DNA of 54,965 bases, the filler included, from Asterionella formosa (taxonomy: Eukaryota), in NCBI GenBank assembly GCA_002256025.1. It is 5 parts of 5 records of this genome, joined end to end, with 100 filler letters (N's around TTAATTAATTAA, not from the genome) between each part and the next. Parts side by side here need not be neighbours in the genome. Positions count along the whole stretch, not along the records: positions 1 to 10,929 come from NKIB01008987.1; 4 more parts are not named here. The stretch is one strand, 5' to 3'. How positions within the stretch are numbered: position 1 is the first letter of the stretch; every line of letters starts with the position of its first letter. Below the pieces are notes generated by a model. It made no database searches and was not told where the DNA came from. It was given only the letters and a program-made list of their open reading frames with translations. Shown here in pieces: positions 1 to 44,401 of this stretch. Position numbers and translations under genes: made by a program.

Positions 1-669
1 CATTTATCCATGGGATTCTAGAGCACTGGTAATAGTTAAGAGGAATAGTGTATGATTTTATGCAGTTACAATGTCCAAATGAATTATTGCTGTTCCATTT
101 TTAATCCAAACACAGTTCCAGTACATTCATTACCTTACACTCCCTCACAAAATATACCTACTAGTACATACCGTATGTACACTGGTGAGACATGAATCAT
201 CGTGGTACCAGCTGCAATACCAGCATATCGCTCTCGGTGAAAGTGATATGCTGATGATGTGATGCTCGATTTCGACATCAAGCGTTACATCCAAGCTGAT
301 TCTGGATTCCGTTTCTCCATATACTCGTGTGTAGAATTTGTCGTATGTAGATGGCTGGTACAAACGGAACATACCGACCTCAGTGTCCGGTAAAATGGTT
401 GTGCAACTCATCTGTGTTCCGATCAGACAAGAACAGGTTGGGGGGTTCGGGAGGCACTCATGATTATCCTGTACTCTACTACCGGTATATAGCAGTTTTT
501 GTGTACACGATAAACTATTGCATTATGTACCATGTAAACATAATAGATATCGCATTTATGACTATATTCAACCCCCTGCTCAAGGTTCCATAGAAATATG
601 TACCACGACAAATAGTGCCTACACGAAACTCACTACAAAATTGACATAGAGTATTTTCTTGCATCTTGA

Positions 670-1444
670 AAATGTTGTACCCTCTCCGAGAATACTGTTG
701 CTCAAGTTTTCTCATCTATTTCTACATAACAAAGGAAACCTTGTCTAGTCAAAGTTATCAAGCTAATCACCGCGGACTCAACACTGTCGCTACTTTGGTC
801 ATATCTTCAAAACTGAGCAAATGACGACCAAAAACAACTTTCAGCACCGATTTCAACTTTTTGTTATCAATTCTAGTGCAAGAAATTGTATTATTCAACG
901 ATAATCTCGTCTATGTTAGTCTGAATACACGTGCGAAATAGGATTTGTTCATTGTCAATATTCGTGAAGATATTAAACTCCATAATTTCGTCATGGTCAA
1001 GATGGAGTTGCTGTCTCATCAACCCCATGCCACAGGCAACTGTACAAACACTCATGGAAGTACTGCCTGATCGTATCTGGTACCCAGTATTATGCATGCC
1101 AAGCATATATAATATTTAATGCTACTATACATACAGAATGTACAAAGTATATACAAGGTTTGTTGTATGTATGATGTGTTCCATGTCAAAAAGCTAAGTA
1201 CATCTGATTCATTATGCATCCGATTTCTTGACAAAATGTACAGTATTACAATTTTGAAAATTTTTTTTCGATTATTATGTTACTAAGTGAAAAGAGTCAT
1301 TGAAAATTTAGTTAGGAAAAGTTTCTATCATTTATAGAAATTAAAATTGATTTGCTACAAATTTAGTCAAAAAGTAATCCCGAGTTCCCCCGACTAATTC
1401 ATTATGCATTTTCGTTTACTTTTATGCAAAAAGTGTAATGGACC
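670..1444. mobile_element. Interspersed AT-rich element (putative DNA transposon end) abutting the Copia RT
   Basis: Segments 671-715 and 1264-1444 are homologous in inverse orientation to ~18690-18733 and 18253-18430. Both copies end sharply at ...GTAATGGACC, and here that end coincides with the point where RT similarity stops (…VDFMG). The left boundary is uncertain. Confidence 0.6.
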
Positions 1445-4400
1445 ACCCATGAAGTCAACCCAGAGACAAGCCACCACAGCATTCTCGAACCACTGCTCAA
1501 CCTCATCACTAACAGAGAAGTAGGCAAAGTCGTACACATATATGCCCAGCCACATAAAGGGGAGGGGAACTAGGCATAGGAGAGGAACCAAAGAAAATGC
1601 AGGGTTCATGAGGGCACTGGGATAAGCCCGGGGACAGGAGAACGTCCCGAAAACAGGTGAACCAATGGCAAGGGCTCCGATGGAGACCAAAGAGAGTTTT
1701 ATGGAGGCGCCAGTAGGTACCAGGCTTGGAAATGGGGCAACCATGAGGGGGTTTAATGACAACCACCTCGTCAGGGGGTAGAACAGGATGGCAAAAGGCG
1801 TTCTTGCAGTCGCCCTGTTGCAAAAGGCGGCTGTGCTCAACGGCAAGAGAGACCAGGAGGCGGAGGATGGCGAGTTGGCCTAAAACAGGGGAGTAAGTGT
1901 CAGACTTGGACCAGTAGATGGTTTCCAAGTTCCCGAGGACCACAATGCGAGATTTGGCATGGACTGGGTGACCAAGTTCATCACATTTGATGGTGACAAA
2001 GAACAGTCATGGAGGGAATGACGGTGCACCCAAGGAGTGATAACTGAGAGGCATCGATTAAATGAAAGGTATTCTGAGCGACTAAAGAGCCGTATTCCTC
2101 CTGATAAGAGGCCAGCCATATGAGACGATCAGGGGAAGTGGGGAGGAGGGCACGGTCAAGGGAAGAGAGACATTTATGAAGGAGGGAGGAGGCAGACACA
2201 TGTTTACCATTCCCAAGGAGCACAACAGGAGGTCCGGAGGGGGGAACAGAGTTCCAGCCAGTGAACAGTGTCTCTTCATGGAGGCAACATAGGAGGACAT
2301 GGGGAAAACTGCCTGTACCAACAAAAATTTGTCAGAATGCATCAGAGATAGAGGAGCTAGTGAGGTCCTTAAGGCCATAACACCAGGTCTTGAGACTAAA
2401 TTGGTCAACAAGCAAGGAGAGGAAGGCAGTAGCGGTAACCACCAGGGCTGATGTCAGCACCATAGCCAATATCAACACCAACGCGCTGGATGATGGAGGA
2501 AGGGTGAGGGAGGGGCAGGCCAGAGGGACCATGCTTCATGTTGACAACGTCGCCAACCGAGATGGGAGGCTCGAAATATTCCGACAGGCGAATGCCATCG
2601 GCCACTGTGGTAAAGATGGAATAATTACGAAATTTGCGGTTGCCAAAATGCTTGTGAAGATCAGGGGAGGAAAAACGGCGAACCTGGGCACCAAAGGAAT
2701 CAGGACGTTCACAAGTCATAATTGCAGGGACAGCGAGAGCAGAAGGATCCGTGGGCAGGATAATCTTGGATGATTCAGAGGAGGGGAGCCGGAGAAGGGA
2801 GGGGTCCGTGGCTGGGTGTGAATGAGGAACAACCCGATGGACAGGCCCTGTGTGGTGGTGAATGGCTGCACGATTGAGTGCAAGCAAGCTGAGCAATGGA
2901 GGGGGGGGGGGTCAGAAAGGACTAAAACTGATGGGGACAAGGTATCGTCAAAGGAGAAAGAGGAGGCTAATGGGGTTGGGGAAAAGGAAGGAGACAATCA
3001 GAGGAGTCGTCAGCCGGAAGGGCAAAATTAGGAAAATGGAGGTAGCAGCCAGAGGAGTCAGCAATGAAGGTGCACCCAGATCCACGGCGGCAATGAACGC
3101 TAATGGAGAGTAGGGGTATATCAAGGCCAGGGAAATGAAGGCAGTTAGACAACCGGACAAATCAGTCGCTGAGTTGAATGGCAACTGTACCACGACCAAG
3201 GACTGCGGTATGATCATTGTTGGTCACCCAGACAGAACAGTGAGTAAGGGGGACATACTATTCAATGAAACATTGGCGGTCAGGAAACATATCAACGGAG
3301 GCCCCAGAATCTGGGTAGATTTTGCTGGAGACTGGAGTGACATGTTGGAGGGAACCCAAGCAAGTAGGGGGGACCAGGGAAGTACTAACATGGCGAGAAG
3401 TGCCCACACTGGAAGGATGGGGATCATCAGAGTCAAGGTAAGAAAAGGCAGAATCAGGACAGTCATCCTCCGAGAAGTCCATTGGGGCAAAAGGATTGGG
3501 TTGGGCATGAGACACCATGGAAACAGCATGGCGGGCAGCGGCAGGGAGAGTGGAAGAGACTAAAGGAGGAATGGGCACCACTGGAGAAGAGGACTCAGCA
3601 GGGGGCACAACGGGTCGAGAAGGAGGAAGAACATCACCAAACAACCAGCCAGAACCAAGAAGACCACTACCAGCAGGGTGGGTAGAGGAGGATGGGGTGG
3701 GGCATGGGGTGGTGGAGGGGGGATCACCACCAGAGGAGGAGAGAGGTTTGGGAACAATGGAGAAACGGGAGGCAACCAGACTACATGCAGCAAGGTCCTG
3801 ATGATTACAGCGATGAATGGGGCATTTGAATTGCTGCATAGCCCTGGCCTGGGAGGCATTGAAGGAAGTGGTCCCAATCCATGCGGTTGGGGAGGTTGCT
3901 GAGGAATCAGATGAGGAAGGAGCAGCAGTACGGTGACCTGTGTGAGCCATCTTGGAGGAGTCAAACCCAGGGGTGTCAGTGTATGTCTTGGCAGAAGCAG
4001 TCAGTGTGCCCAGGGTCATAATGGTGAAGTCCTTCTGGTGTAAGAGGTAGTAGGATTGGACAAAGGCATGAAAGTCAGGACCAAGAGCCAATAGAAAACG
4101 ATAACAAATGAATTTTTCTGTGAATATTTGGCCAGCATCGGCTGCCTTTGAAACAAGTTCACAGGTGCGAAATGAAATTTGTAGGGGTGTCCTCTCTTTC
4201 TCCTTCTGGAAGAGATTATCCCAAGCTGTCAAAAAGTTGATAAGCAAGTAGGAATGGGAGACCCGATAATATTTGGTGACTTCAGCAAGGAGACCAAAAC
4301 CATTGTGGAGGATATCATTTTGGCTGCGCCAATGATCAGCAGCTTGGTCATGGAGGGCCACAAAGAGAACCAAATACAATGCCTGGGAGAGAGATTCATA

Positions 4401-5260
4401 TGAGGGATCATCAGGAGAGGCAAGGTGGATTTGGCGCCAAGCTGGGGTACTCAGGCGGGTGGTCAACATGGTGAACCACTAATTGAGTTTGGTATGATCC
4501 CCATTGAAGCATGGAGGGCTCATGGAAATCTCCTTCTTATTTTTGGAAGATGTAATGGAGGCCACAAGGGCAGCCTGGATATCGGCCTTAGTGGCAACAG
4601 TGGCAACAGAGGCAGCATGGGAAGAGACAATGGTTAAGGAATCAGCCACAGAGTCCAAGCCACTGGACTGAACATGGAGATGGGGAATGGGGGGATTCAT
4701 AGTGGGAATGAAAGGAGAGGTCCTTGATGGGAGAAGAGCGTGACACCTGGAAGGCAGGTGCAGACAGGGGAATGGGTAGGGGCCGATGAGGGAAAGGTAC
4801 ATGAGGCTGGGAGAAGGGGGCCTGATAGAAGAGTGCAGGGTCCAGACCAAGACAGCCAAAAGGGATGAAGGCAGCAAGAGGGCCACAACCAGGGATAGGG
4901 GCATAGGGGTCAATGTCACCAGCATGTTGAAGGTATGCCTGGGCAGCAGAAGAAAATTCGTTAAAACCACCAACGTGGCCCCGAATTGGACCCCAGTGGT
5001 AGCCAGCAATCAATGCCCATGCAAGAGGCCAGCTGTGAAAGATTCCGCAGTGGCGGCCATGGTAGACAACATAATATAGTTTGTTAGACCGATCCATGGA
5101 GTGATCTGTACCCAAATATGACAGGTGTCGGGGATGAGTAAAGCCATCAAGCAACTAGAGAAGGACGAGGTTCCTGAGAAGCAGAGTGGAGGAAATGGGG
5201 AGAGGTGGGTTGATGGTAATGGTGTTGGGATGAGGTGCCTGAAGGGGTTTGGCACGTCTG
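1445..5260 (-). mobile_element. Degenerate Ty1/Copia (CoDi-like) LTR retrotransposon internal region: HBD-gag-protease-integrase-RT, truncated at both ends
   Basis: Domains in Copia order across frameshifted ORFs: gag (3258-4469) with Zn knuckle CPIHRCNHQDLAAC; protease YPDSGASVDMF; integrase LHKHFGNR and VGVDIGYG..PGGYRYCL..VDQFS..TWCYGLK; RT KNAFCHP..LHKTLFGL.RSP..WF and IYVYDF (YVDD-like). No LTRs recognised. Confidence 0.9.
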
Positions 5261-5281
5261 TAAATAAAAACTATCATGAAT

Positions 5282-5322
5282 ATAGGATCAAGGGTATCGT
5301 ACGCTAAGTGGCACAGGATTTT
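5282..5322 (+). repeat. 41-bp dispersed repeat, probable transposon terminus
   Basis: ATAGGATCAAGGGTATCGTACGCTAAGTGGCACAGGATTTT matches the reverse complement of 17170-17210 at 40/41 positions. It sits where the Copia coding region is truncated. Confidence 0.75.
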
Positions 5323-8300
5323 TACATATATGATAGTTTTTCGATCAAAAATATGATCAATGTATCTTATAATTATGATCATGCAGTAAACTTTTACCAA
5401 GCTTGAAGTATGATGATACTATCATAGTTATAATACCATTGCATCATAGAATTAGTTATACATGGTCATATGATGTGTATACTTTTGTCATGCATCTATC
5501 TTAGCATGATCGTAATTCTCATCGATATCACTGTCTAAAATAGGACGAAATTGATCGAAATTTAGAACTATATTTAGCTAAGAATGGTTTTATGTTTCTA
5601 TATCTTGAGTGGCTACAGAATGTTCTACAATGCTCTCATCGCAATGATTGGTGCTTCAGCTTTCACTTTCACTTCCACATTCCCCCCAATCCAATTATGA
5701 GGGTTGTTGTATTGCTTGCCTTGCCGTGTTTCCCCTGCTATATTCCACTTACTCCTGATGGATCTGAGTTTGCATACACACATTTTCCTATTACTATTGA
5801 ATCCGTTTCGTTGTTCCAATCAGCCATACTAACAAATAGAAGCAATTCATGATTGTTAGCTGTTCATGTTTTGCTTACACAACAACATGCATTTCGCTTC
5901 TATCTGTGTTCACTTACCACAAATTGAGGAAGTAAGTGATGCATATTTCTGTAAAATAATGTGTCAGTTGAAGATTGAATGAAAGTATCGATCAATAAAT
6001 GGGCTCCAACACTGCTGTTTGTAACTTACAAATACTGTTTGTCTACCATTATCCTGAAAGAAGGAACACATATGTGTCAGTTTTTCTAACACCAGTTGTG
6101 GATTGATCCAAAGATGATAGCACTTACCGATTTCTTTTGTCCACATTGATGATTGGCCAGCCACCAAATCAAAAAGGAGCTATTGAATCACTGAAAGGGG
6201 ACAAGTCATTCCGTATTTATTATCCCAGCAATTGATCATCCTGGTGGCATTTGCTCTTGATAAACCGTGATGCTATGCACAGCTTGTTGATTCCACTCTT
6301 CTCCATCATATTCACTCCTTCTTAACCGCATGGTGTATCATCATGCTGTATTGTCACTTCAGTTTTCGCATCTTGTGTTGCTTGAGATCCTTCATTTCAG
6401 GAAGTGGATGCATGACAAGGAACATGAAAAGCATTTGCTCTTGACTTGTTACCATCAATTGATTCCGCCCTTCTCCTCTAAGCCGCAAGTGTCATTGTGC
6501 TGTATTATCACTTTTGTTTTCCGCGTCGTCATCTGTATTAATCCTTCATTTCATGAGCAAAGTGTATGCATGACAAGGAACATGAAAACATGATTTCAAA
6601 TGTTTCAGCCATGAATACATATATATAAAGATTTGTAAGCAGTTTAAATGTATATATAGTTGAAAATTTGCATAGTTTTAAACATGCTCGGCTCATTATA
6701 CGGCATATCCTGTGTATACTAAGCAACATCAATTTTGATGATACATAATTCAAATATATACAATGCCCGATGAGTTCATAGTTTTCCACGACCTGTTGAG
6801 TTTTTTCAATTTGTTTTGTGTCAATTCTTGTACCTACAAGTCAGTGGCTGATGTAATTAAGCCGCTTAATAAACGGGAGTCATCACCAATATTTCAAATG
6901 GTCGAAATCATACATTTATGTATATAGACATATGGACCAAAATTCATATGGCCTACCAGTAGTACTGTATAATTGCTGGTAATTACTTCTATCATGGAAA
7001 TGCCACAATAGTGCAGCGGAAAATTTGAATATGCTCATGTGCTTAGGATCATTTGATCATATTTTTAAGATCAATTAATCCTGATTCTTGAAAATAAATG
7101 TTGATTGTTCATTTTCTCATCAACGACACTGTTCATCATATGATCAATATGTTATTATCAAAGTTATAGGATATATGAATCAAGAATCATCGATTAAAGA
7201 TCATAGTTTATACCGGAGAAGTTGCTCATGCATGCAACCCCTTCCCTCTCCCCCTTTATACAGTACGGAAGTGATAACCCCCAAGCTACCAAATTTTTAT
7301 GTCTTGTAAGAATTATCGCAGCATGCATGCATACATGACTCCTACTGGTATATACTAGAATGCGGAAATGATGACCACCAGAGTACCAATCCTATAGGTC
7401 TTGTAGAAATATCGCACATGGCTGCATATCTAATGAAAGGGCAGGGGGAGTCATCCATGCACCTGTATAGTATGAAATATGGAAATGATCAAATATAGTT
7501 TACACAAGGAGCAGTGCATCATCTATGCCCTGTTATTTTAATTCCTATGAAATCTCTTGATCTGTTCTGCGCTTTTTTGTCACCACAATTGTTTTCATTG
7601 GCTGTTTCACTGGACAGTATTCGAATTGATTGTGCTTTGAACGAAGCAATGATCAAAGTACACCCCATTGCAGAATGTGAGTCTCATAACTAAGTATGAG
7701 CCAGTCGATTAAAATTGGACTGTCTTTTGTGCACCCTTGCTTGTTGTGTTTGTACTTGACTTGGCAACTGTCAGCCAAGAGCAGCCATGGTATGCCACCA
7801 TATATTGTCCATACAAATTTTCGAATGCGTTCAGCTATGATAACTTTTGCTGCCCCCTCCTAAACATTATCTCACCACCCTTGTCATCGATTGTTCTTTA
7901 TCCTTTGGCTTCACAGGCCCAGGTTACTCAATGCCTTCATCTGCAAGTTCAGCCAAGCAGGCCCACGTTGGCGTCAAGAAAACCTCAACCCCGATTTTCC
8001 TCACATGCTCCACCCAGTGACTTCTTCATTGATGAAGTCGAGGTAGCTATATTGATGTCAGGTGGCGCAGGCTTGTGTATACTAGATTGATGATGCCGAA
8101 AGCATTGCTTCTTTTTCCGGTAGGTACCTATTGGTCAACATTGTTTGGGTCAATCTATTCTTGTTCCCGCAAGACCAGAAGCAATTATCCCTTTACTTCT
8201 CCTCCCAAGAACCTTCATTTCTCTTTCACAATTGTCCTGATGTGTTTGCAGAGTATTTTTAGTTCTCTTTTGATTTTTCCACCGGTTTCGATCCCTTTTG

Positions 8301-9539
8301 CATTCAAGTCAAGAAACAAGCAACTCATTGAGATTTCTGGAGCTTTTGGCCAGTGGCACCATAAAGCAACAATCAACAGATCATGGCGGCTGTTCTCCAT
8401 TTTCTGTAGCAAGTGACATTCAAGAAGGGTCTGATATCATTGGGGAGAAAACTTAGTAGGATTCTCTGTGTATGCCCCCGCCTGTTTGGCATTCTACCAT
8501 TGCTTCCTCTCAATCAATACTGGCTAGTATAGCTAATGAAAACCATAATTAGATGAAATGTGACTTCCGGTTTCTAATATTTTTCATTGTTGCACTACTG
8601 AAACTTGAATCCATAAATGGGCATTCAACTTGTGCTTCTTGCATTTTTGTAGGATAGACTGGCTGGTGGGCGATAGGCCAACGTTTCTCACTTTTCATGA
8701 ACATCTACAAAGTACTAGTGCTTTTGTCTAGGTTTGTGTCTAAATCCAACTGCTGCCATCCATTGAAATATTCCAGATACATCAAAGAATACGCTCCTGT
8801 CTTCAAAGGTAAGGAACTAGTACGATGACAAAGGAAATCTGATGAGACATGAAAATTACGAAACCAGAATCACTCTGTTACTATAAATAGATAGTCTCAT
8901 GCTTCTTTGTGCATATCGCCTGCTATGCTGCGTTTCAAATCTAGATGTATTACGTTCTTGTTATAGAGACGATATTACGGAGAAGTAGATTGTGCTGTTC
9001 TATAATGATGCTATTTAGCTATGATTGAGGTTGTAACACTGATTGATGCTCTGGTGACAGACCGGCCGGAAATATTCGTCTTGTGTGATGAGCCATTTCG
9101 TTTTGATTGGATTTCTTTTCAAGCTTTTCACGGATTGCATACGAACATACTGTACAATGCAGATGATGATTCATCGAAGACATGATAGCTATGATGACTT
9201 GAATGACAAATGAAGATTTTATCACAAATACTTGTTCCTCTCGACATGACTCCTTTGTTGTTGTTGCTGCAAGAATCAGAGTGAGGACTGGCAAGGATGA
9301 TGAGCCAAACCACATTACTTTAACTGGTACATTATCCTACCAAGAAATTTAAATAAAGGAACCTAAAAGAAACAATACATATAATGATTAAATTTCTATA
9401 GTCAAAAGGGTTACTATTTAAATTACGAGGGCATTTTTCAAAATTATTAGGTGATATAACGAAAAATTATGATCATATCATATGATCATAATCCTATGAT
9501 GCATCATTGGAATATTATGGTTTTTATTTGCAGACGTAG

Positions 9540-10120
9540 ACAGGAGAGCCATAAGCTGCAGAGTGAATGGGGTGTGTGGTAGAGGATATGGAGTGAGCTG
9601 AGCAAGTTCGGCTTGAAGATGGGCCACCCCCAAGCTGTAGGAGTGGGAGGAAGGGCCAGAAAGGGCAGACCAGGCAGAGGCATGGTCAGAAAGGTGAAGA
9701 TAGGATGCCGGGGAAGCCAAAGGCAGAGCCTGGGGTGAAAAATGGGTGGTGGGTAGGGACTCATAGAATAAGGGGCTGAATAGCAAAGAGGAGGCACAGA
9801 CATGTGGGGGTCCATAGTGAACTCAGATAATGAGGGTGGGACAAAATGCGGAAGGGGAGCATTAGTGGAGAACTGGTGATGGCAGGTAGGGTTAGGGTTA
9901 AGATTAGGGTTAAGCGGTGCCACCAAAAGTTCACCATGGGGATGGGGAAATAATGCACCAGCATTGTGGTGTTGCCATGCAGCCAATTAGCCACTGAATG
10001 CAGCTGCATCAGTGTCATTGGCATCATGAGGCAATGGAGATCGCATGATGGAGAGAAGTCTGGTAAGGGATCAGTAACCTGTGTGTGTTGCGAGGGAGAA
10101 ACACTTGCAACGGGTGCCAT
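9540..10120 (-). mobile_element. Possible decayed retroelement gag-like/proline-rich remnant
   Basis: GC-rich, strand-asymmetric, CpG-poor block with Pro/His-rich minus-strand frames, similar in composition to 4600-5260. No diagnostic motif. Confidence 0.25.
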
Positions 10121-10291
10121 CTAAAGTAGTATTTAACTAGCTGTAGAGGGACCAGTACTCACGGGAATTAAGCACTTACAGGAATCTTGGTTGGACATAC
10201 GGAGTAACCGGTATATGGTACCAGTACCAACACATATGACGGTCCCAGGTTACCTGGAGTACCAGGTACCCAGTAAGAATGGCAACGATTA

Positions 10292-10929: not shown

Positions 10930-11029
10930 NNNNNNNNNNNNNNNNNNNNNNNNNNNNNNNNNNNNNNNNNNNNTTAATTAATTAANNNNNNNNNNNNNNN
11001 NNNNNNNNNNNNNNNNNNNNNNNNNNNNN
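10930..11029. other. Artificial scaffold linker (N44-TTAATTAATTAA-N44)
   Basis: 100-bp spacer with stops in all six frames. Identical spacers at 21953-22052, 32960-33059 and 43964-44063. Confidence 0.97.
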
Positions 11030-13540
11030 TTTATTGGTGACACATTTCGCAAACGTCCTGGACCAGCATCGTGGAGCTTGTAATATCCCGTACATAGCCT
11101 TAACAAGCTTGCAAACATGTGTATCGAAATCGACTCCTATCAAACCTTGAGGGGGCTCACTATAAATTTCCTCATTGACATCAGCATTTAGAAATGCTGC
11201 TTCCACATCAATAGCCTCCGCTCGCCAACCGTTGTACATCGTCACTGCGAGTACCGTTTTGATTGTCGCATCGCTTGCAACTGGAGCAAATGTCTTAGTA
11301 AAATAGACACCTGGGATTTGCTCATATCCCTTCACGACCAATCTTGCCTTGTAAATGGTCTTCCCGGTTAACACATCTTCTTTAATTCGAAACACCCATC
11401 TCGTTTTTAGTGTTCGCTTCTTAACAGTATCACGTTTGACAACTTTCCACACTCCTCTCGACCGGAAGTTTTCATATTCTTTGTTGATCGCCTTGATCCA
11501 CTCTTTCTTGTCTGGTCTTGCCATTGCTTCATTGTAGCTTGTTGGTAATCCTGGATCAGAAGCCAGACTTGCGTTGTACACAAAATTCACCTGTGTATTC
11601 TTCGTTATTTCCTTCATGTTATCCTCCTCGATAACACCAGGCATCTCAGTATCTCCTGAAATTTTCACAATTTTCGTACTCATAGGATTGAACGATGAGT
11701 CCAATCTTCGCATTTCAAGTGCCAACTTCGCTTGCTTAGACTGAGCACTTTCCGCACGTTTAACCTTCACAATTGGGGTATTGGTACCTGTAACCTCGTA
11801 TTTCGTAGTACCATCTATCTTAGTTGATTATTCAGTTTTCCTCCCCAATTCTTGCTTGTCATCATCTTCATCTTCATTATCGGACACTTCTCGAGGTTCG
11901 AACTCGTCGTAAAAATCGTCATGCAATTCTTCATTATCTTCTCGTACTTCCTGTTGGTTGGTGACTGGTTTGAACATTTTCTCTAGTCCATCGTCCACAG
12001 CCATTACCCAATACTGATTTCCCACAGCGGATTTTGCGTAGGGTCCGCTAATATTAATAAACAGCCTTTCTCCTGGTGTCGTAGCCTTCTCTTGCGTCAT
12101 CTTGGGTACTGCGCGTGCTTTCGCCTTGGCTGCTGCGCATCCTGCGCACACCTTTAAATTTCCCACAAGTTTCCACCCAAATAATTTCGATGTCTCACGA
12201 AGACATTTTCCCCCCACATGTCCAAGCATTTCATGCGCTTCATTTATTTCCACAATCACATCATTATTTTCGTTCGCGTTTCTTTTCTCGATCGTTTCAC
12301 CTATCGCTTTCGTCGTTTTCTTCTTTTTGTCGATTTTTGTCCATTCATTCTCGTCTTCTTTAGTATCATAGTCGATAGATTGTTGTGTTGGCTTCTCGCT
12401 TTCTTGTTCAACCTCCAACACCGTTTCCTTTAGAATAGGCGTTCCTTGCACATGGTACATTGCACCAATTGTCCTCGTTTCATCACGTTTGCAGATCAAA
12501 AATCCGTTGTTGTTTCTGATCGTCATCTTATCATCGTCAAACATAACTTTATTTCCCTTGTCAATAATTTTCGAAATGCTGATAATGTTCTGCTTGAACT
12601 CCGGTGCATAGAGCACATTGGTGAGTTTCAACACTTTTCCTTTGTCTGTTGTTGTAAGGGTCACCATGCCTGATACGGTCGCAACAATTGCTGCGCCATT
12701 TCCCACAAGAACAGTTTCACGCACTGCGCGCTTGTCCTCCATGATGTGCTCATCATTGCATATATGTACCGTAGCGCCACTATCTAGTAGCCAATGGTCC
12801 TTATGCACGCACGTATGATTTACCTCTTCGTTGTACCTTGCCTCAATACACGTCACCACGAACATTCCTTGCGTAGTGGTGTTGGCGTCTTCTCCCTTCT
12901 CTTTGATTGGTGCATTTTGTTGATTGTTGCACTCACTGGCATAGTGCCCCATCTTCTGGCAATTATAACACTTCACATTCTTTCTCTTATTTTGTTGCTC
13001 GGGAATTAATTCTCTCTTTTCTGTAGTATTGCCCTTGCTTCGGCAATCAACTGCCTTGTGGCCATACTTGCCACACTTCCTGCAGTCTCCCTTAAACTTG
13101 CTTTTTGAAAAGAAGGCCTGCTCGCCATTCTTATTTGTCTTGGTTTTGTCACGCACATACAAATGGTAATAGTCGCGTACATTCTTCTTGACCTATTGGA
13201 TCGTGAGCTCGGAGCTCACGAGACCAAATTTTCCAACCACTAAACTCTTGTAGACTTCCGGTACTAGGTTGTTGATAACATGGGCCACATAGGCACCATC
13301 CGAAATTTCGGAGCTCATACGACTCAATCGCTCTCGAATTCTATCCAACTCCACAAACCAAATGTCAGGGTTCTCATTCTTGTTAATCGTGCATTTTGTC
13401 CACTGACCTGACAAGGCAATCACATTTGCCATATTACTTGCCTTGTACGTAGACACTAACTTGTCCCACGCTTCCTTCGCATTTCCATTGGGGAACTCTT
13501 CACTTCTGGCACCATTTACGTATCCAAATGGTCCACTACA
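11030..13540 (-). mobile_element. Ty1/Copia retrotransposon pseudogene (gag, 2 CCHC knuckles, protease, partial integrase, RT N-half)
   Basis: gag NAKEAWDKLVSTY..NPDIWFVELD; CRKCGKYGHKAVDC and CYNCQKMGHYASEC; WLLDSGAT; AHEMLGH..CAGC; RT KARLVVKGYEQIPG, DVEAAFLNA, KAMYGILQAPRCW. The three ORFs are in one frame, separated by single stops at 13193-13195 and 11828-11830. Confidence 0.95.
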
Positions 13541-20727: not shown

Positions 20728-21194
20728 GAACTATCCAAAAAATAGTCAAAAAAGGGGGCCATCAAGCTTTTAAAAAATTCTACGAGGGATAACTTCCACT
20801 TCTCTGCAGAAGTTAAATCCTGACGTTATAGGGTACACGGCTATCTATTTCATTCTTCATGAAACCCCGTAGATGTAGAGTAATCCTCCTTCAAAAAGTC
20901 GACCCGATCGGCTTTTTCAACAGTCGCCAAAATATTGGAATCAGAATTTGTACGTGCAAAAACGTTCTCGTATACTTGGAGTCTTGCGTGGGTATGTTTT
21001 GCTGAATAATTCTCAGTCCGAAAAGACTCCAGCGTTAGTTCCCGCGTCCCTACACATATTCTGATTGGTTGAATTGAATTTATTCACCTGCTCCAGATTC
21101 GCTGAAGTATCCCGGTCTTGTAAAATCTCGCCAGCCACACTTGAGCCACACGTATTAGATGTACTGAATACTGGTTGGTAAAATCAGTACCGGT
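20728..21194 (+). repeat. ~465-bp non-coding interspersed repeat, copy 1
   Basis: Colinear with 34517-34980, with long identical blocks (e.g. TGACGTTATAGGGTACACGGCTATCTA, ACACATATTCTGATTGGTTGAATTGAATTTA). Confidence 0.9.
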
Positions 21195-21949: not shown

Positions 21950-22052
21950 TACNNNNNNNNNNNNNNNNNNNNNNNNNNNNNNNNNNNNNNNNNNNNTTAA
22001 TTAATTAANNNNNNNNNNNNNNNNNNNNNNNNNNNNNNNNNNNNNNNNNNNN

Positions 22053-26038: not shown

Positions 26039-27209
26039 AATCCCGCTCGTCCCACTAAATAAAAAACCGAAGGCAACATGGAGTGAGAGAGGGGAAACAA
26101 GAATGATTACTACACTGTATACGCGAGCGCAGCGCATTGAACTCAAAGATTGGAATATCCCATTTGCATCCCCTACTCCTCGCAATCATTGATATTTGTC
26201 NNNNNNNNNNNNNNNNNNNNNNNNNNNNNNNNNNNNNNNNNNNNNNNNNNNNNNNNNNNNNNNNNNNNNNNNNNNNNNNNNNNNNNNNNNNNNNNNNNNN
26301 NNNNNNNNNNNNNNNNNNNNNNNNNNNNNNNNNNNNNNNNNNNNNNNNNNNNNNNNNNNNNNNNNNNNNNNNNNNNNNNNNNNNNNNNNNNNNNNNNNNN
26401 NNNNNNNNNNNNNNNNNNNNNNNNNNNNNNNNNNNNNNNNNNNNNNNNNNNNNNNNNNNNNNNNNNNNNNNNNNNNNNNNNNNNNNNNNNNNNNNNNNNN
26501 NNNNNNNNNNNNNNNNNNNNNNNNNNNNNNNNNNNNNNNNNNNNNNNNNNNNNNNNNNNNNNNNNNNNNNNNNNNNNNNNNNNNNNNNNNNNNNNNNNNN
26601 NNNNNNNNNNNNNNNNNNNNNNNNNNNNNNNNNNNNNNNNNNNNNNNNNNNNNNNNNNNNNNNNNNNNNNNNNNNNNNNNNNNNNNNNNNNNNNNNNNNN
26701 NNNNNNNNNNNNNNNNNNNNNNNNNNNNNNNNNNNNNNNNNNNNNNNNNNNNNNNNNNNNNNNNNNNNNNNNNNNNNNNNNNNNNNNNNNNNNNNNNNNN
26801 NNNNNNNNNNNNNNNNNNNNNNNNNNNNNNNNNNNNNNNNNNNNNNNNNNNNNNNNNNNNNNNNNNNNNNNNNNNNNNNNNNNNNNNNNNNNNNNNNNNN
26901 NNNNNNNNNNNNNNNNNNNNNNNNNNNNNNNNNNNNNNNNNNNNNNNNNNNNNNNNNNNNNNNNNNNNNNNNNNNNNNNNNNNNNNNNNNNNNNNNNNNN
27001 NNNNNNNNNNNNNNNNNNNNNNNNNNNNNNNNNNNNNNNNNNNNNNNNNNNNNNNNNNNNNNNNNNATCATAAGTAAAATTCCTGCTTGTCCCATTATTT
27101 ACGTGCTTCACTCATTGTTTCTGGGTCTCACCTGTCACGAAAAGCCATCACCCACCAAAAGTCTTGGTCAAAATTACTCCCTGATCATTCCTTTAGAAAT
27201 CCTAGCAAC

Positions 27210-29156: not shown

Positions 29157-31043
29157 TTAATACACACGGGCAACAGGAGCAACAGTCTTACACTCGTCTT
29201 CGTCCAGAGTGTAATAATGGATGGGTCTGTATTCAATTTTGGTCTTGCCATCCTTAAAGTAGGCCAAGGTGTGCTTCATCCAATTGACATCGTCACGGGT
29301 GGGATAATCTTCGTGTGCGTGAGCCCCTCTAGATTCCTTGCGCTTCTCTGCTCCATGCATAGTTGTACTGGCGCATGGTAACAAGTTCTTGAGTTCCATT
29401 GTCTCGATAAGATCCGTGTTCCAGATCAACGATTTGTCTGTCACTTTAACGTGGTTGAACTTATCTACAACTTGATCAATCTTGACTGCGCCTTCGGCGA
29501 GGACTTCTGATGTTCTGTATACAGCAGCGTGGTCTTGCATGACATGCTGCATCTCGGATCGAATCTCCGCAGTAGTGATGTCACCATTGGAGAATCTCAG
29601 CTTATCAAGGTCAGCAAGGGAGTCCATACCAGCATCGCTTTTCATGTCAGGAATTTTTTCTCCTGGAGTGGCAATTTCCGCAATTCTGAGGGCGCAAGCA
29701 CGTCCAAAGACAACAATGTCTAACAGGGAGTTGGCTCCAAGGCGATTGGCGCCATGGACAGAAGCACATGCGGCTTCTCCTGCAGCAAAGAGTCCAGGAA
29801 CAATATCGTCTTGGATGAAGTTTCCGGACGAGTCCAACTTGGTTCTGATGACTTCGCCATGATGGTTGGTTGGGATGCCTCCCATGTTGTAGTGAACAGT
29901 AGGCAAGCAAGGAATTGGTTCCTTGGTGACATCAACTCCGGCAAAAATACTGGCAGTCTCGGAAATTCCCGGCAACCGTTCAGCCAACAAATCCGGAGGC
30001 AAATGGTCCAAGTGCAAGTAAATGTGATCTTTCTTGGGGCCCACACCACGTCCTTCACGGATCTCCATGGTCATGGCGCGGGAAACGACATCACGTGACG
30101 CCAGATCCTTGGCAGAAGGAGCATACCGCTCCATGAACCTTTCACCCTCACTGTTTCGCAACATTCCTCCCTCTCCGCGGCATCCTTCGGTCATGAGGCA
30201 ACCGGCCCCGTAGATTCCGGTCGGATGGAACTGCACAAACTCATTGTCTTGGTTCGCAATTCCCTGGCGCATGGCCATGGCATTTCCATCCCCGGTGCAT
30301 GTGTGAGCTGAGGTACAGCTGAAGTAGGCACGACCGTATCCTCCAGTCGCCAAGACGGTGTTCTTCGCGTGAATTCTGTGGATTGTTCCATCCTCCATGT
30401 TCAAGGCCATGACTCCGATGCATGCGCCCTCATCGTTCATAAGGAGATCCATGGCGAAATATTCAATAAAGTAAGTCGTATCAAATGCCAGCGAGCGACC
30501 ATACAAGGTGTGCAACATGGCATGGCCGGTTCTGTCTGCTGCACAAGCACATCGATGTGCCTGAGCCCCCTTTCCATAGTCCAGAGACTGACCCCCAAAG
30601 GCTCGCTGGTAAATCTTTCCGTCTTCAGTTCTTGAAAAGGGCAATCCAAACTGTTCCAGTTCCAAAACCGCCTTGGGTGCCTCTCGACACATGTAATGGA
30701 TGGCGTCTTGATCGCCCAGCCAGTCCGATCCCTTGACAGTGTCATACATGTGCCATCGCCAATCGTCCTCTCCCATGTTTCCAAGAGCGGCATTGACCCC
30801 TCCTTGTGCCGCGACAGTGTGCGAGCGCGTGGGGAATAGTTTGGAGACGCATGCGGTCTTGAATCCGGCTTCGCTGAGTCCCATGGCAGCCCGAAGGCCA
30901 GCACCTCCGGCCCCAACCACAACGGCGTCGTACTCATGATCGACAATGGTGTAGTCTCCAGTCATGGTCGACGCCACGCCGCGTCGGGCAGCTGTGCGAG
31001 TGAGAGTGCGGGCTGTGCTGGAGCGAATGGTAGATGACAACAT
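29157..31043 (-). CDS. SDHA: Succinate dehydrogenase flavoprotein subunit, mitochondrial
   Basis: Mitochondrial presequence; [23 protein letters not shown] (FAD-binding His); [26 protein letters not shown]. Confidence 0.99.
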
Positions 31044-32875: not shown

Positions 32876-33059
32876 GATTACGTTTGTGAATAGAGTACCG
32901 GTACAGTATTATGAAGTTGTTTTGAAGTAATGACGACCAGCATGCTGATATGAAAATATNNNNNNNNNNNNNNNNNNNNNNNNNNNNNNNNNNNNNNNNN
33001 NNNTTAATTAATTAANNNNNNNNNNNNNNNNNNNNNNNNNNNNNNNNNNNNNNNNNNNN

Positions 33060-34516: not shown

Positions 34517-34980
34517 TAACTATCGCAAAAATAGTCAAAAAAGGGGCTACGAAGCTTTTCTAAAAATCTACGATACATAACTGCAGCTTCTCTCCAGAAG
34601 TTATCTCTTGACGTTATAGGGTACACGGCTATCTACTTTAATCTTCATGGAACCCCGCAGATGTAGAGCAATCCTCTCCAAAAAATCGACCCGATCGGCT
34701 TTTTCAGCAGTCGCCAAAATATTGGAATCGGAATTTGTATGTGCAAAACTTTCTCGTAGACTTAGAGTCTTGCGTAGGTATGTTTTGCTGCTTAATTCTC
34801 AGTCCGAAAAGACTCCAGGGTACGTTGGCGCGTCACTACACATATTCTGATTGGTTGAATTGAATTTACTCACCTGCTCCAGATTGGCTGAAGTATTCCG
34901 GTCTTGTAAAATCACGCCAGCCACACTTGAACCACATGCATTGGATGTACTATATACCAGGAGGTAAAATCAGTGCCGGT
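34517..34980 (+). repeat. ~465-bp non-coding interspersed repeat, copy 2
   Basis: Colinear with 20728-21194. Confidence 0.9.
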
Positions 34981-36900: not shown

Positions 36901-39283
36901 AAAAAAGTGTTGCAAAATTCATAATGAGCGAGTTAGGCAGTTAAATTCATAATTATCTCTATAATAAGAAATTTCTAATTATGTATGCTAGAACAAGTAG
37001 TGTATTGTTGGATGTCAGGGTGAATGTTTAATAGTCACATGAAGCCAATGGCCATGTACACTGTAGGGGCATTGTCGGGGAAAAGGCAATGAGGAAGTCT
37101 GCAATATTGATGTAGACAACAACAAAAAAGAAAAATGGATACTATTGTATTTCTGTTGAGGAGAACCTAGTCATTAACAACGGTCACAAGCAATATAATG
37201 ACTATTCTAATGCTGTCCTTATGTAGTGTAGCATTGTTAGAGTAGCTAAATGTATCTTCTCAATCTGGTGGAAATGCATGTACAGTCAGTCTCTAGGGTT
37301 CGTTGGCGACAAAGTGTCCTCGAGTTTGAAGACTTTTAGCATTCGTATACCCGTATATAGGAATATCGGATTCTTTCCGGTTAGACTGATTTCAGTCTCC
37401 TAGACTGGATTCAGTCTGGGTTCTCAATCCCTTGCCCCTAGCTCAATTAAACAAATATTTCATTTCTGAAAAGTTAATTTAAATCTGCAGAAGACCTGTA
37501 TGATTCTGGAGGTATGAATGGCAATAAGCTTTTACAGTTTCAAAAAATTCAGATACATGAGAAGTCTGCCTGCCAAAAAATCTCAAAAAATCTGTGCGGG
37601 ATGGCGCGAAAACAAAATTTGACAATTGGCAAAGGTGCCCTCGTTTCATGCCTTACCAAGTAAATTCACCTATCTCTGTGGGTCCGAAATCATCATGTGA
37701 ACATCGCAAAAGACCATCGAGTTGAAAGAATGACAGTTCGGCAGAGGGAGCTCAAGAAAATCAGAGGTAAGGATGCGATTGCCATTGTGGTCACTGCTCC
37801 CGGGATTGTAGATGATGTTGATATGACTGAGCTTTATACCCTAGAAATCACTTCTAGATCATTTCCGATGTTGATTCAGACACCTTTTACTATTATGAAG
37901 GCGATTATTTATTTGAGGAGGTAGCAGAAGGTGAAGTGATGCCTTCAGAGCTTCTCAAACTTGTTGAGTGGCTGTGTACTGGCGGCGCAGTTCTTGACAC
38001 TGACGATATTGCCATCCCAGCTGGATTTGTTGATTTTGGTGTTGACAATGCCCCAGCATCTGAAAAGGTTTTTCAACGATAAAGTTGCAGAAGATTTGTT
38101 TGTCAATGAGTGGGATAAGTCAGGAATTTGCGACAGGAGCCAGTTGAATGGATCAAAGAGCAATCCAATATTTTCATCATTTGAAGTCGACTAGTACCTT
38201 CCAGTTATTTGATTTAATCTTTCCTTAGGAGCTCTGCCTGGAATGATTCAATTATATTTATTATTGCTCAAGATTTTGAGGGCAAACCTGTAACCACTCA
38301 GATGAATTGAAAAATGGTGGAATGGGAATGGTGGAGGGGAAAGTGTGTGGCGCAGATCATGAATAGCAGAAAAAGATGACATGTACAGTGGCTTTCTACA
38401 ACCACTTTAAGTTTTGGCATGCAGTTGACAATTATAATGCGACGAGGCATTCCTCAATAATTTTGGAAGTGAAATTTGCGACAAAATGTTGGCCAAATAG
38501 AGTGTCATCATTGCTCCTTTCAGTCATGCTGGCAGACGATGCCCTGCTTGCATAGCTAGCTGTGAACAATTTGCTCTATACTAAGGAGGGAGGTTGATGG
38601 CATGCTCTGTTTTCGCAAGCTCATTGCGGAGGCATTGGTATGATATCATTATTACAACGAAGAAGACAAAGAATCGCCTAGAAGGTCGCCAAGATTGACT
38701 AAAAAGTGCTTAGCAAATTGCTTTCCAGCTACCCAGATGGGGCAAGAAATTTTTCGTGACAGAGGTTGTGGTTCTGGCAGTTCCCACCTCCAAAGTACAT
38801 GTGCATATTGGAAAATCATGACTTGGACATGTTGTGTATGGTCCATGGGTATGCTTCGATGTGCTGATTGTTGTTTACATCATTCCATTGAAGCAGCATT
38901 GAGTCTTTCCAGTCCAGACTGATCTGGTGTGTCTGCAGAGTTTTTCATGTTGTGACTGACACACGACTAAATATTAGTAGTTCAAATTCCAATTCTTTGT
39001 CTTCAACATGTATAGCCCTTTTAATCAGGAGCAAAATTACTATCCAATGATCTATCTAAATTTAGAGGAAAGTAGAAATCATTTTCAAATTGAGCCTCAA
39101 AGACAGACTGAAATCAGCCTAATGAGCCGGAAAGAGCCAGATATATTAAAAACTCCCAACGAACATCGTCATCGATGCACCAAATATTCGTATATGAATA
39201 TGTGTGTCATAAATTCCAGACACCATCAGCTTCGAATATCGTGGACGGTGTCGACAATGAGAAGTCTCAACTCTGTCGGTGTC

Positions 39284-40513
39284 ATGAAGTTTCGCTTGAT
39301 AGCATTTTTCATCCTGGCCATTATTCGACGAATGAGCGCGTTCTCATTGACAAAGCCATCGCCTTATGTACTCCCGACATGGGCGAAAGATATTCTATCC
39401 AACATACCGCTCAATGGCAGATTATCATTAGCAAATCTTCCCACTCCGTTGTATCGCCTGGAGACCAAAACTGAAACTACAGTACTGCAACGCATAAAGG
39501 AACTCAACATTTCACTTTACATAAAACGCGATGACATGACTGGAGGTTGCGAAACGGGAGGAAATAAAATACGAAAGCTCGAGTTTTTGATGGCCGATGC
39601 GCTTGCTTCTGGTCATGACGCTGTCGTTACGATTGGGGGAGAGCAGTCCAATCACTGTCGTGCGACGGCAGCTGCAGCTCGAATGGTGGGGCTAGAGCCT
39701 CATTTGATATTGAGGACAGGGCGAGCCAACGCAGTACAAGAGAAAGATGCTGAGTTTGGTATGACTGGCAATCTCCTTTTCGACAGGATGGTTGGAAGTA
39801 CGATCTATACGTGCACTCCTGGAGAGTACGGTCGAGTTGGATCTACCGAGATTGTAGAGGGTGTATGTACGCACCTTACGCGTAAAGGTAAAAAACCTTA
39901 TGGTATTCCTGTGGGAGGATCCAACTGGCTAGGAAGCTGGGGCTATATCCAAGGCGTCGATGAGGTCCTCCACCAATGGAAAGACAGCGATCAGTCATTA
40001 GATCACGTTGTGTTTGCGTGTGGAAGTGGAGGAACAGCGGCTGGAATTGCCTTGGGGTTCGGACTGGCGCCAGAGCAATCGCCAAGTGTTCACGCTGTCG
40101 CGGTCTGCGATGACCCAGACTATTTCTACAACTACGTGGCTAATATAGCAGACGATATGGGGTTCCAAGGGGATGCGCTTGCCTTTATTAAAGGCAACAT
40201 GGTCGTTCACCAAGGGAAGGGACTAGGTTATGCATCAAGCACACCAGAAGAGCTTAACTTTGTGACTCAATTTGCAGTAGAAACGGGTATCGTATTGGAT
40301 CCAGTCTACAGTGGCAAAGCGCTTTATCATTTTGTGACGAATGTCCTGGAACAAGATCCAGAGGCATATCGTGGGAACAATGTCCTCTTTTGGCATACTG
40401 GAGGAGCGCTCGGACTGTTTGACAAAGGCAACGATTTGTTTTTAAATGCTGTATCACCTGTCAAGCGACTCGACTTCTATAAGAAAAATGATGATGGAAT
40501 GGTCTCCATGTGA
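39284..40513 (+). CDS. D-cysteine desulfhydrase (ACC deaminase/D-CDes PLP family), possibly plastid-targeted
   Basis: KRDDMTG..GGNKIRKLEFL; QSNHCRATA; ACGSGGTAAG; LDPVYSGKA; FWHTGG. The start is uncertain (39257 or 39284); MKFRLIAFFILAIIRRMSAF resembles a signal peptide plus SAF motif. Confidence 0.92.
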   Translation: MKFRLIAFFILAIIRRMSAFSLTKPSPYVLPTWAKDILSNIPLNGRLSLANLPTPLYRLETKTETTVLQRIKELNISLYIKRDDMTGGCETGGNKIRKLEFLMADALASGHDAVVTIGGEQSNHCRATAAAARMVGLEPHLILRTGRANAVQEKDAEFGMTGNLLFDRMVGSTIYTCTPGEYGRVGSTEIVEGVCTHLTRKGKKPYGIPVGGSNWLGSWGYIQGVDEVLHQWKDSDQSLDHVVFACGSGGTAAGIALGFGLAPEQSPSVHAVAVCDDPDYFYNYVANIADDMGFQGDALAFIKGNMVVHQGKGLGYASSTPEELNFVTQFAVETGIVLDPVYSGKALYHFVTNVLEQDPEAYRGNNVLFWHTGGALGLFDKGNDLFLNAVSPVKRLDFYKKNDDGMVSM

Positions 40514-43845: not shown

Positions 43846-44401
43846 TGCTAGCAAAGTTGGTCAGAACCAAATTGCTTCAGTGTATATGCCCTATTTGCAT
43901 AGGAATGCAAATAGATATGCCATGTAATTCAAAGAAATTATTCCTTCATGATTATTTAGCACCNNNNNNNNNNNNNNNNNNNNNNNNNNNNNNNNNNNNN
44001 NNNNNNNTTAATTAATTAANNNNNNNNNNNNNNNNNNNNNNNNNNNNNNNNNNNNNNNNNNNNGTATTTATTTTACACGTTGGAGGACAAAATAGTGAAG
44101 AAAAGGTGAATCGCATTGTTGTCCCTCGATTACTGGTCCTCCACTATACTCCTTGCGCCTTTCATTTAGAGCTTCTGTCCCTAAGGACATCTCAAAGAAA
44201 CCTCGATCGGATCGGATCCAACAACAGGTGTTGAATACAAGGACGACTACCAGGGTAGTAGCACACAGAAACGGATCCTCGTTCCGCGTTCCACCGCCAT
44301 TCTGACCTCGTTCCTGAGTCCCACTTGGTTTTAAATTGTAGAAGGCGCAGCACCGTTTTTGATTGCTTGTTCTCGTCTTCTAATGTGGATTAGGTGCTAT
44401 C

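Follow-up and report, generated by a model that had tools for sequence, protein, structure and literature searches.

Accessory parts of retroelements, such as integrase chromodomains, additional RNase H domains and env-like genes, reveal how these elements have answered problems of replication, targeting and conflict with the host. A stretch of DNA from Asterionella formosa (assembly GCA_002256025.1; 54,965 nucleotides, filler included; hereafter the window) raises the question of whether the hybrid-binding domain (HBD) known from the N-terminus of eukaryotic RNase H1 and from caulimovirus P6 can be such a domain. On its minus strand, at 1445-5252, the window holds a degraded fragment of a Ty1/Copia long terminal repeat (LTR) retrotransposon, the 5' LTR of which lies apart at 9536-10232. 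The original prediction had placed an HBD-like peptide at 4924-5082 on the minus strand, upstream of the gag region of this element. The peptide is present in a stop-to-stop open reading frame (ORF; 4642-5154, minus strand) that contains ...MDRSNKLYYVVYHGRHCGIFHSWPLAWALIAGYHWGPIRGHVGGFNEFSSAAQAYLQHAGD...; a longer reading gives ...SMDRSNKLYYVVYHGRHCGIFHSWPLAWALIAGYHWGPIRGHVGGFNEFSSAAQAYLQHAGDIDPY... and then a Pro-rich stretch. The whole domain extends over 4903-5097. An HBD in front of gag is an unusual add-on for a Copia-type element. Comparison with relatives shows that the domain is built into the Gag region of a Ty1/Copia family and conserved there, and that the window region is the HBD of a dead copy.

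An HBD conserved in the Gag region of a Ty1/Copia family

When the HBD ORF was used to look for longer proteins, P0001 (460 aa, 91% identity) and P0002 (355 aa, 63%) were recovered; each reads from the HBD across the linker into the start of gag in a single frame. A metagenome scan with P0001 gave six loci. The metagenome contig L002 (6703 nt) carries a nearly complete element, with contig ends that repeat each other as LTRs. Its first ORF (3-4598, 1531 aa) encodes Cauli_VI (residues 131-157), Pol_BBD, rve, SH3_retrovirus and the start of the reverse transcriptase (RT), and a second one (4438-5970) encodes RVT_2 and the RNase H region. L002 lacks two bases at 4548 that are carried by the contigs of all four RNA-library runs compared; the frameshift that separates its two pol ORFs is therefore either private to this contig or due to faulty assembly. 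Two further proteins, P0019 (843 aa) and P0020 (148 aa), came from a search with a profile of the HBD alignment. The cluster of P0019 includes P0022, a polyprotein of 2062 aa without interruption, encoded on an 8694-nt contig, in which Pfam recognizes Cauli_VI (216-242), Pol_BBD (800-876), rve (1067-1156), SH3_retrovirus (1220-1290) and RVT_2 (1547-1784). HBD and gag also share a single frame in P0019, P0040 and P0041. Altogether, the HBD is found at the same place in four lineages:

Lineage A: the window copy, P0001 and loci L001-L004
Lineage B: P0019, P0022, P0017, P0040 and P0041
Third HBD lineage: P0002 (P0008 is an N-truncated relative of P0002 without the HBD region)
Fourth HBD lineage: P0020

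The polyprotein of intact members runs, in this order, through a P/S-rich N-terminal extension, the HBD, a Pro-rich linker, Gag with its knuckle, protease (PR), integrase (IN), RT and RNase H. The original prediction had spoken of a Copia lineage with an accessory RNase H1-type HBD upstream of gag, and had named copies with HBD and gag in one ORF as the way to check it; L002, P0022, P0001, P0002, P0019, P0040 and P0041 are such copies, and the claim holds in its core. The same copies exclude the nested insertion of an unrelated gene.

Conservation of the HBD matches that of the enzymatic domains. Between L002 and P0022, which belong to lineages A and B, identity amounts to 80% in the HBD, as against 81% in PR, 88% in IN, 77% in RT, 82% in the RNase H region and 77% in gag. 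The three linkers reach 57-70%, and the N-terminal extension is identical at 34% of all positions and at 62% of the aligned ones. Within the HBD, the core GIFHSWPLAWAL.AGY.WG is invariant in all eight aligned sequences. By this measure of constraint, the HBD evolves like an essential part of the element.

Judged by domain order and RT type, the element belongs to Ty1/Copia: both L002 and P0022 have the order PR-IN-RT-RNase H with an RVT_2-type RT (Pol_BBD, rve, SH3_retrovirus, RVT_2). A polypurine tract, GAGGGGGG, stands just ahead of the LTR in L002-L004, and the LTR begins with TG. For the primer-binding site, a tRNA-iMet-type motif had no plus-strand match in L003, the four matches with three mismatches being at chance level; neither this site, nor the 3' end of the LTR, nor a target-site duplication was found, and the window copy lacks its 3' end. 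Pfam detected no chromodomain, the trait of CoDi-A, in P0022.

More distant relatives were sought with gag among 1.84 billion representative sequences. This search yielded 14 matches at E <= 0.001, 13 of which are fragments of at most 331 aa, and no full-length relative; P0014 (738 aa), considered as a full-length gag relative, is a repeat protein and was taken as spurious. The distant relatives are 26-37% identical to the window gag ORF. They keep the C-x2-H-x4-H-x4-C spacing of the knuckle in P0011, P0012, P0013 and P0016, and P0015 is off by one residue. P0011, which has a weak Retrotran_gag_2 match (E 0.0018, below the cut-off), begins about 20 residues before the F..W motif of gag and has no extension. 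Since this distant gag relative has none, the sequence comparison suggests that the HBD-bearing extension is specific to the present clade. Scans of viral contigs and genome contigs contained no relatives of P0022.

A 1353-nt stretch was found, in part, in 20 runs of 15 studies, the labels of which are algae, lake, river, estuary and freshwater metagenomes. In four metatranscriptome runs, each of a different study, near-identical contigs cover 27-30 of the 30 bins into which L002 was divided; among them are contigs of 2354 nt and 1650 nt, and one of 950 nt that extends from the LTR through the HBD to L002 position 788.

Identity of the domain

The likeness of the peptide to RNase H1 and Cauli_VI, noted at first by motif, is upheld by profile methods. 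The window ORF matches Pfam Cauli_VI (PF01693) with E 3.3e-4 and 21.3 bits, against a cut-off of 21; the match covers ORF residues 27-52 (window 4999-5076) and profile positions 2-27 of 44. Among ten proteins with a complete HBD, nine reach the Pfam cut-off (21.1-25.7 bits versus 21) and P0002 scores 19.4; the ten stem from four lineages and hence are not independent. For comparison, we assembled 21 bacterial Cauli_VI domains from 21 of the 401 genomes searched, each N-terminal in an open frame of ~260-350 aa, save one of 93 aa. Alignment of the family profile (six sequences) with these domains by hhalign gave a probability of 95.4% and E 1.7e-8 over 21 columns. When the family profile was run against 177,635 sequences of the PDB, the sole matches at E <= 10 were 1qhk (E 0.25) and 3bsu (E 0.44); these E-values are weak, and the two entries are the two solved HBDs. 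In the Atlas, the ten best matches with a family all belong to the Cauli_VI family or its clan (the three shown score 0.86-0.87), which is regarded as a lead only.

The C-terminal half of the domain is also aligned by MAFFT, with a 4-residue insertion before beta3 and with the helix-B pattern A..A[FY] kept. AlphaFold, given an alignment that included the bacterial HBDs, produced a model with a predicted local distance difference test score (pLDDT) of 70.6 and the order beta-beta-alpha-beta-alpha. With this model, Foldseek ranks 1-5 in the PDB are all chains of 3bsu (probability 0.99-1.00, target TM 0.81-0.84, root-mean-square deviation 1.2-1.6 A), and the match that follows them has a probability of 0.18. 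In BFVD, ranks 1-22 all have a probability of 1.00; they are mostly caulimovirus TAV, together with phage and giant-virus proteins labelled TAV/viroplasmin or RNase H1, and seven are unnamed. Taken together, these results put homology of the N-terminal half to the HBD beyond reasonable doubt, and the whole domain probably has the HBD fold.

Residues expected at the nucleic-acid interface are partly kept. The human HBD contacts the hybrid through Y29, W43, K59 and K60, a set that comes in part from an excerpt of PMC7657459; the excerpt also indicates that Drosophila RNase H1 likewise keeps just two of these four residues. In the Copia family, the Tyr and Trp that correspond to Y29 and W43 do not vary, and the basic turn RGRHRG is similar to the human RRGRKTG.

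The window copy and the start of its polyprotein

From ~1400 to 5270, base composition is uniform, as originally claimed, with a GC content of 0.48-0.56 and plus-strand purines at 0.62-0.66, and the flanks are AT-rich. The strand asymmetry is extreme and spans window 1400-5270 and 9400-10230 and the whole of L002. Within these limits, the copy is made up as follows, in the direction of the element:

9536..10232, minus strand: 5' LTR, beginning TGTTGG at 10232 (blastn, L002 5980-6703 = window 10223-9555, 88.7%)
10044..10046, minus strand: probable start codon (MRSPSP), shared by two lineages (L003 686-688; P0022 residue 1)
5254..9537, no strand assigned: AT-rich insertion of 4.28 kb, which splits the LTR part from the body and is not retrotransposon sequence
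5098..5252, minus strand: last part of the N-terminal extension before the HBD, with the motif LVDGF.HP (aligned with P0001, L002, P0002 and P0017)
4903..5097, minus strand: HBD of RNase H1 N-terminal/Cauli_VI type, 65 codons from MDRSNK to DIDPY (Pfam, alignments, hhalign, PDB profile, model)
4479..4902, minus strand: Pro-rich linker between HBD and gag (three-frame translation, alignment to L002)
3258..4478, minus strand: open frame with gag, knuckle and protease active site (ORF list, homologues P0003-P0016, motif coordinates)
2287..3257, minus strand: remainder of the protease and beginning of the integrase region, interrupted by stops and frameshifts (blastn, translation, indels)
1445..2285, minus strand: IN-RT spacer and N-terminal half of RT (RVT_2 E 4e-17 on 1509-2006; blastn)

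Two blastn blocks relate the body to L002 (window 5252-2287 = L002 224-3164; window 2285-1445 = L002 4159-4983), with 93.2% identity over 2929 aligned bases and 11 indels. A 4-nt insertion near 5154 breaks the frame upstream of the HBD, and the HBD itself has six substitutions relative to L002, three of which remove arginines. The frameshift and the stop that the original prediction reported in the Pro-rich linker are both there: an 11-nt deletion relative to L002 at ~4693 shifts between the HBD frame and the gag frame, and the in-frame stop at 4479-4481 falls inside the gag motif F-N-E-W. The claim that the HBD joins a gag-knuckle-protease-integrase-RT polyprotein stands for the join to gag, as gag, the knuckle CPIHRCNHQDLAAC (3783-3824, minus strand; C-x2-H-x4-H-x4-C) and the protease motif DSGAS (3297-3311, minus strand) all lie in the open frame 3258-4478. 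Downstream, the copy keeps PR, remnants of IN and half of RT, and is more damaged than the original prediction had it: ~994 nt comprising most of the integrase (L002 3165-4158) are deleted at window 2285/2287, further stops and frameshifts interrupt PR and IN, and the element is cut off at 1445, with the remainder of RT, RNase H and the 3' LTR absent. The copy has no 3' end, and no direct repeat in the window fits an LTR pair. Relative to L002, the window copy has undergone 28 changes from CpG to TpG/CpA, versus 11 in the opposite direction. The window copy is dead and non-functional.

The LTR parts of L001, L003 and L004 stop at window position 9536 by blastn, and their junction sequences join 9536 straight to 5252, without the 4.28-kb insertion. 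The insertion is bounded by terminal inverted repeats (TIRs) at 5254-5277 and 9514-9537, which are 24 nt long, imperfect and 88% complementary, with the sequence ACGTCTG[C/T]AAATAAAAAC...; several subterminal inverted repeats are present as well. Four of its five ORFs of at least 100 aa have no Pfam match at E <= 0.01, and the fifth has only an OGFOD2-like match far below threshold (E 0.0094, 16.4 bits versus a cut-off of 31). The insertion is probably a non-autonomous DNA transposon. On the sense strand of the element its ends read GT...polypyrimidine-CAG, which is intron-like. In a contig of RNA-library run X13, a near-identical TIR end adjoins the same retrotransposon family at L002 position 303; as this is a different place, a related transposon has struck the Copia family more than once.

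The polyprotein may begin in the LTR. The Met directly before the HBD (MDRSNK) occurs in lineage A only, its place being taken by C, T or R in lineage B, P0002 and P0020. Lineages A and B have just one start in common, MRSPSP, which lies ~190-210 nt into the LTR. In the window, this ATG reads MRSPLPHD, and the opening stretch of the N-terminal extension, which follows within the 5' LTR, is interrupted by a stop and by frameshifts. What sets LTR variants apart are in-frame indels (14 and 2 codons) and hexanucleotide repeats of NPNQ type. On this comparison of reading frames, translation probably begins at the ATG in the 5' LTR, with part of the extension LTR-encoded, and several hundred LTR bases may be coding. 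The HBD would then probably lie not at the N-terminus but ~215 residues into the N-terminal extension. A polyprotein that begins within the LTR has been described for yeast Ty1. Gene callers applied to the metagenomes produced wrong-frame proteins, for example at the N-termini of P0017, P0018 and P0040.

Elsewhere in the window, a second, unrelated, AT-rich Copia fragment occupies 10982-13192 (minus strand). Its ORF 11828-13192 has two CCHC zinc knuckles, Pol_BBD and a weak gag_pre-integrs match. RVT_2 (11030-11827) follows directly after this ORF, so most of the integrase of the second fragment seems to be missing; the N block 10930-11029 adjoins. Two adjacent families of direct repeats (149 and 236 nt, 82-89% identical) recur at 20749-21194 and 34537-34980, ~13.8 kb apart, and might represent either the LTRs of a further element or repetition of a segment. 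N blocks at 10930-11029, 21953-22052, 32960-33059 and 43964-44063 consist of paired 44-base N runs about every 11 kb, and longer N gaps span 26201-27066 (866 bases) and 47099-47597 (499 bases); these runs look like masking or scaffold gaps, not biology. Host genes appear as long intron-free ORFs. The 628-aa product of the ORF at 29160-31043 (minus strand) is a succinate dehydrogenase flavoprotein (SDHA) of mitochondrial type, with 62-74% identity to proteobacterial SdhA; its neighbours in the Atlas are clusters of Streptophyta and of Bacillariophyta, both with a score of 0.99, so that they give an ambiguous phylum for the host. The ORF at 38981-40513 (plus strand; 510 codons) resembles, by eye, pyridoxal-phosphate-dependent deaminases, and that at 46944-54965 (plus strand; more than 2600 codons) ends in what is, by eye, a PI3K-like kinase region.

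Proposed role of the domain and comparison with known systems

The reading that joins these results, to which we give a probability of roughly 0.55, is that the window holds the HBD of a dead, non-functional Copia copy, that this HBD is conserved in the Gag region of its family and has a duplex-binding role, and that the polyprotein starts in the LTR. The HBD would give Gag or Gag-Pol affinity for A-form-like duplexes, namely RNA/DNA hybrids and, to a lesser degree, double-stranded RNA (dsRNA). It could then keep Gag on the products of minus-strand synthesis within the virus-like particle, where intermediates of reverse transcription would be stabilized, or shielded from host RNase H1 and other factors directed at hybrids or dsRNA. 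In this, the family would have converged on the dsR motif of caulimovirus P6/TAV; an excerpt of PMC5902531 has the dsR motif of cauliflower mosaic virus (CaMV) TAV bind RNA-DNA hybrids and dsRNA in vitro. Taken alone, the specific proposal that a Gag-tethered hybrid binder concentrates Gag on minus-strand products and stabilizes or shields them stands just short of even odds. A wider version, in which a Copia lineage took the RNase H1 HBD independently of caulimoviruses and fused it to Gag as a counter-defence that shields intermediates from host RNase H1 or other hybrid- and dsRNA-directed defences, with a large part of the polyprotein N-terminus LTR-encoded, is doubtful at present. If true, it would be a counter-defence built from the host enzyme's own targeting module.

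Several observations pull in the other direction. Every sequence-level match (Pfam, hhalign, PDB profile) is to the N-terminal half of the domain only, that is, to beta1-beta2 and the Trp; all Pfam matches are confined to profile positions 1 or 2 to 27 or 28 of 44, and the 4-residue insertion lies in the C-terminal half. A single-sequence PDB search with the HBD gave no HBD and two irrelevant weak matches. On the family-only alignment, AlphaFold reached a pLDDT of just 40.5, and the model with a pLDDT of 70.6 depends on the bacterial HBD rows, so it is biased toward the hypothesis; no Foldseek match in the PDB or BFVD has E <= 0.001. MAFFT pairs human K59 with an invariant Arg and K60 with Gly; the lysines are not clearly kept, and the alignment there is uncertain. 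The pyrimidine-rich coding strand leaves all three sense frames open over long distances, with overlapping ORFs of 130-343 codons. Since stops are rare in every sense frame, the open N-terminal extension is weak evidence of translation, and P0017 and P0040 read it in another frame. After protease processing, the HBD would not be in cis with RT or RNase H. Contigs from RNA libraries are no proof of transcription, DNA being possible in such libraries.

That the domain is no HBD at all, and that the stretch reflects chance or low-complexity likeness or a host-gene fragment in this copy alone, could be argued from a window Pfam score just 0.3 bits over the cut-off on 26 of 44 profile positions and from the single-sequence PDB search without a relevant match. 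The same domain at the same place in four lineages, including the 2062-aa P0022, the hhalign E of 1.7e-8, a fold match specific to 3bsu, and conservation equal to that of the enzymatic domains leave this explanation with next to no probability; the architecture of P0022, the constraint and the hhalign result refute it. Given an HBD fold, the question becomes what it binds. It may have lost its hold on nucleic acid and become a protein-interaction module, for instance one that recruits a host kinase or a translational or ribosomal factor. The dsR region of CaMV TAV binds TOR, according to an excerpt of PMC5902531, and in the Copia family the lysines equivalent to K59/K60 are not clearly conserved, the loop before beta3 is longer by four residues, and helix A presents a surface, PLAWAL.AGY.WG, that is hydrophobic and without variation, an uncommon trait in an HBD. 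We consider this module unlikely, as the Tyr and Trp whose human counterparts contact nucleic acid are invariant, the basic strand-turn RGRHRG is retained, and no partner is known or predicted.

Two further proposals keep the binding of nucleic acid and place it elsewhere in the life of the element. As a suppressor of host RNA silencing, the HBD would sequester the element's own dsRNA. Binding of dsRNA in vitro is known for HBD-type motifs and, as an excerpt of PMC5902531 relates, suppression of silencing was once proposed as a role of CaMV dsR; the family is present in RNA libraries of four studies, and the excess CpG decay of the window copy (28 versus 11) is compatible with a silenced, methylated copy. 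The same excerpt describes the CaMV dsR domain as dispensable for RNAi suppression, and a domain held on Gag within particles would hardly be able to titrate dsRNA in the cytoplasm or nucleus, which makes this role improbable. A role in directing integration to R-loops or transcribed regions, like that of the chromodomains of chromoviruses and of CoDi-A integrases, has a precedent in the diatom CoDi-A Copia elements, which captured a chromodomain at the integrase C-terminus (excerpt of PMC2774666); capture of a targeting module thus does occur in algal Copia elements. Here, the HBD lies in the Gag part, ~800 residues ahead of the integrase, and protease cleavage would part them; because of this distance, R-loop targeting is highly improbable. 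Duplex binding by Gag on reverse-transcription intermediates is the role that we prefer over these readings.

The fusion has some practical consequences. It offers a compact system for asking whether a hybrid- or dsRNA-binding module on a capsid protein raises the yield of cDNA or guards intermediates from host RNase H. A natural HBD variant apparently without the canonical lysines would be useful for studies of hybrid recognition and for R-loop probes. For annotation, PF01693 matches in algal genomes and metagenomes can be retrotransposon Gag, and not RNase H1 genes.

Among known systems, the closest in fold is the HBD at the N-terminus of eukaryotic and some bacterial RNase H1 (PF01693; 3bsu human, 1qhk yeast). 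The Copia domain shares with it a length of ~50 residues, the beta-beta-alpha-beta-alpha order predicted by the model, the signature [KR][FY]YVV.xGRxxGI[FY]xxW, the C-terminal A..A[FY] helix pattern and the Y29/W43-equivalent Tyr and Trp, at an identity of 22-32% to bacterial HBDs and 22-25% to 3bsu. It differs in that no RNase H catalytic domain follows it and in that it sits in the Gag region; it also has the 4-residue insertion before beta3, a lysine pair that is not clearly conserved and an unusually hydrophobic, invariant helix A.

With other Ty1/Copia elements, including the diatom CoDi groups (Maumus 2009; Llorens 2009), the family shares LTRs, the order PR-IN-RT-RNase H, an RVT_2 RT, a Pol_BBD protease and an rve integrase. 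Its gag bears a distant likeness to that of Copia elements, through the weak Retrotran_gag_2 match of the relative P0011. The family differs from these elements in its ~420-residue N-terminal extension with the HBD before gag, and in a C-x2-H-x4-H-x4-C knuckle instead of CCHC. For CoDi ORFs, an excerpt of Maumus et al. 2009 reports only CCHC fingers in gag by InterProScan, and an excerpt of Llorens et al. 2009 (PMC2774666) describes the chromodomain on CoDi-A integrases and no HBD. A search confined to the literature found no description of an HBD/Cauli_VI domain in an LTR retrotransposon; the papers that it returned dealt with RNase H-like proteins of plants, Helitron capE, RNase H1 of Drosophila and pararetroviruses. 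The Helitron-captured capE of Pleurotus ostreatus, in the excerpted part of PMC4289320, is also a gene with a PF01693 domain in a mobile element; there, the element is a DNA transposon and the captured gene stands alone, whereas the HBD described here is an in-frame domain of a replication protein.

Caulimoviruses, through the dsR motif of P6/TAV, are also reverse-transcribing elements in which an HBD-type motif lies apart from the RNase H. There, P6 forms a multi-domain protein of its own, in a pararetrovirus related to Ty3/Gypsy, whereas the HBD of the present family is in frame with Copia Gag-Pol. In L002 and P0022, Pfam found solely the 27-position Cauli_VI motif and none of the other P6 regions (mini-TAV etc.), so the family does not belong with P6/TAV. 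Acquisition of the HBD independently of caulimoviruses is the simpler reading. A Gag-fused HBD would then be the second, apparently independent, reverse-transcribing carrier of this domain after caulimovirus P6/TAV, in which its role is debated.

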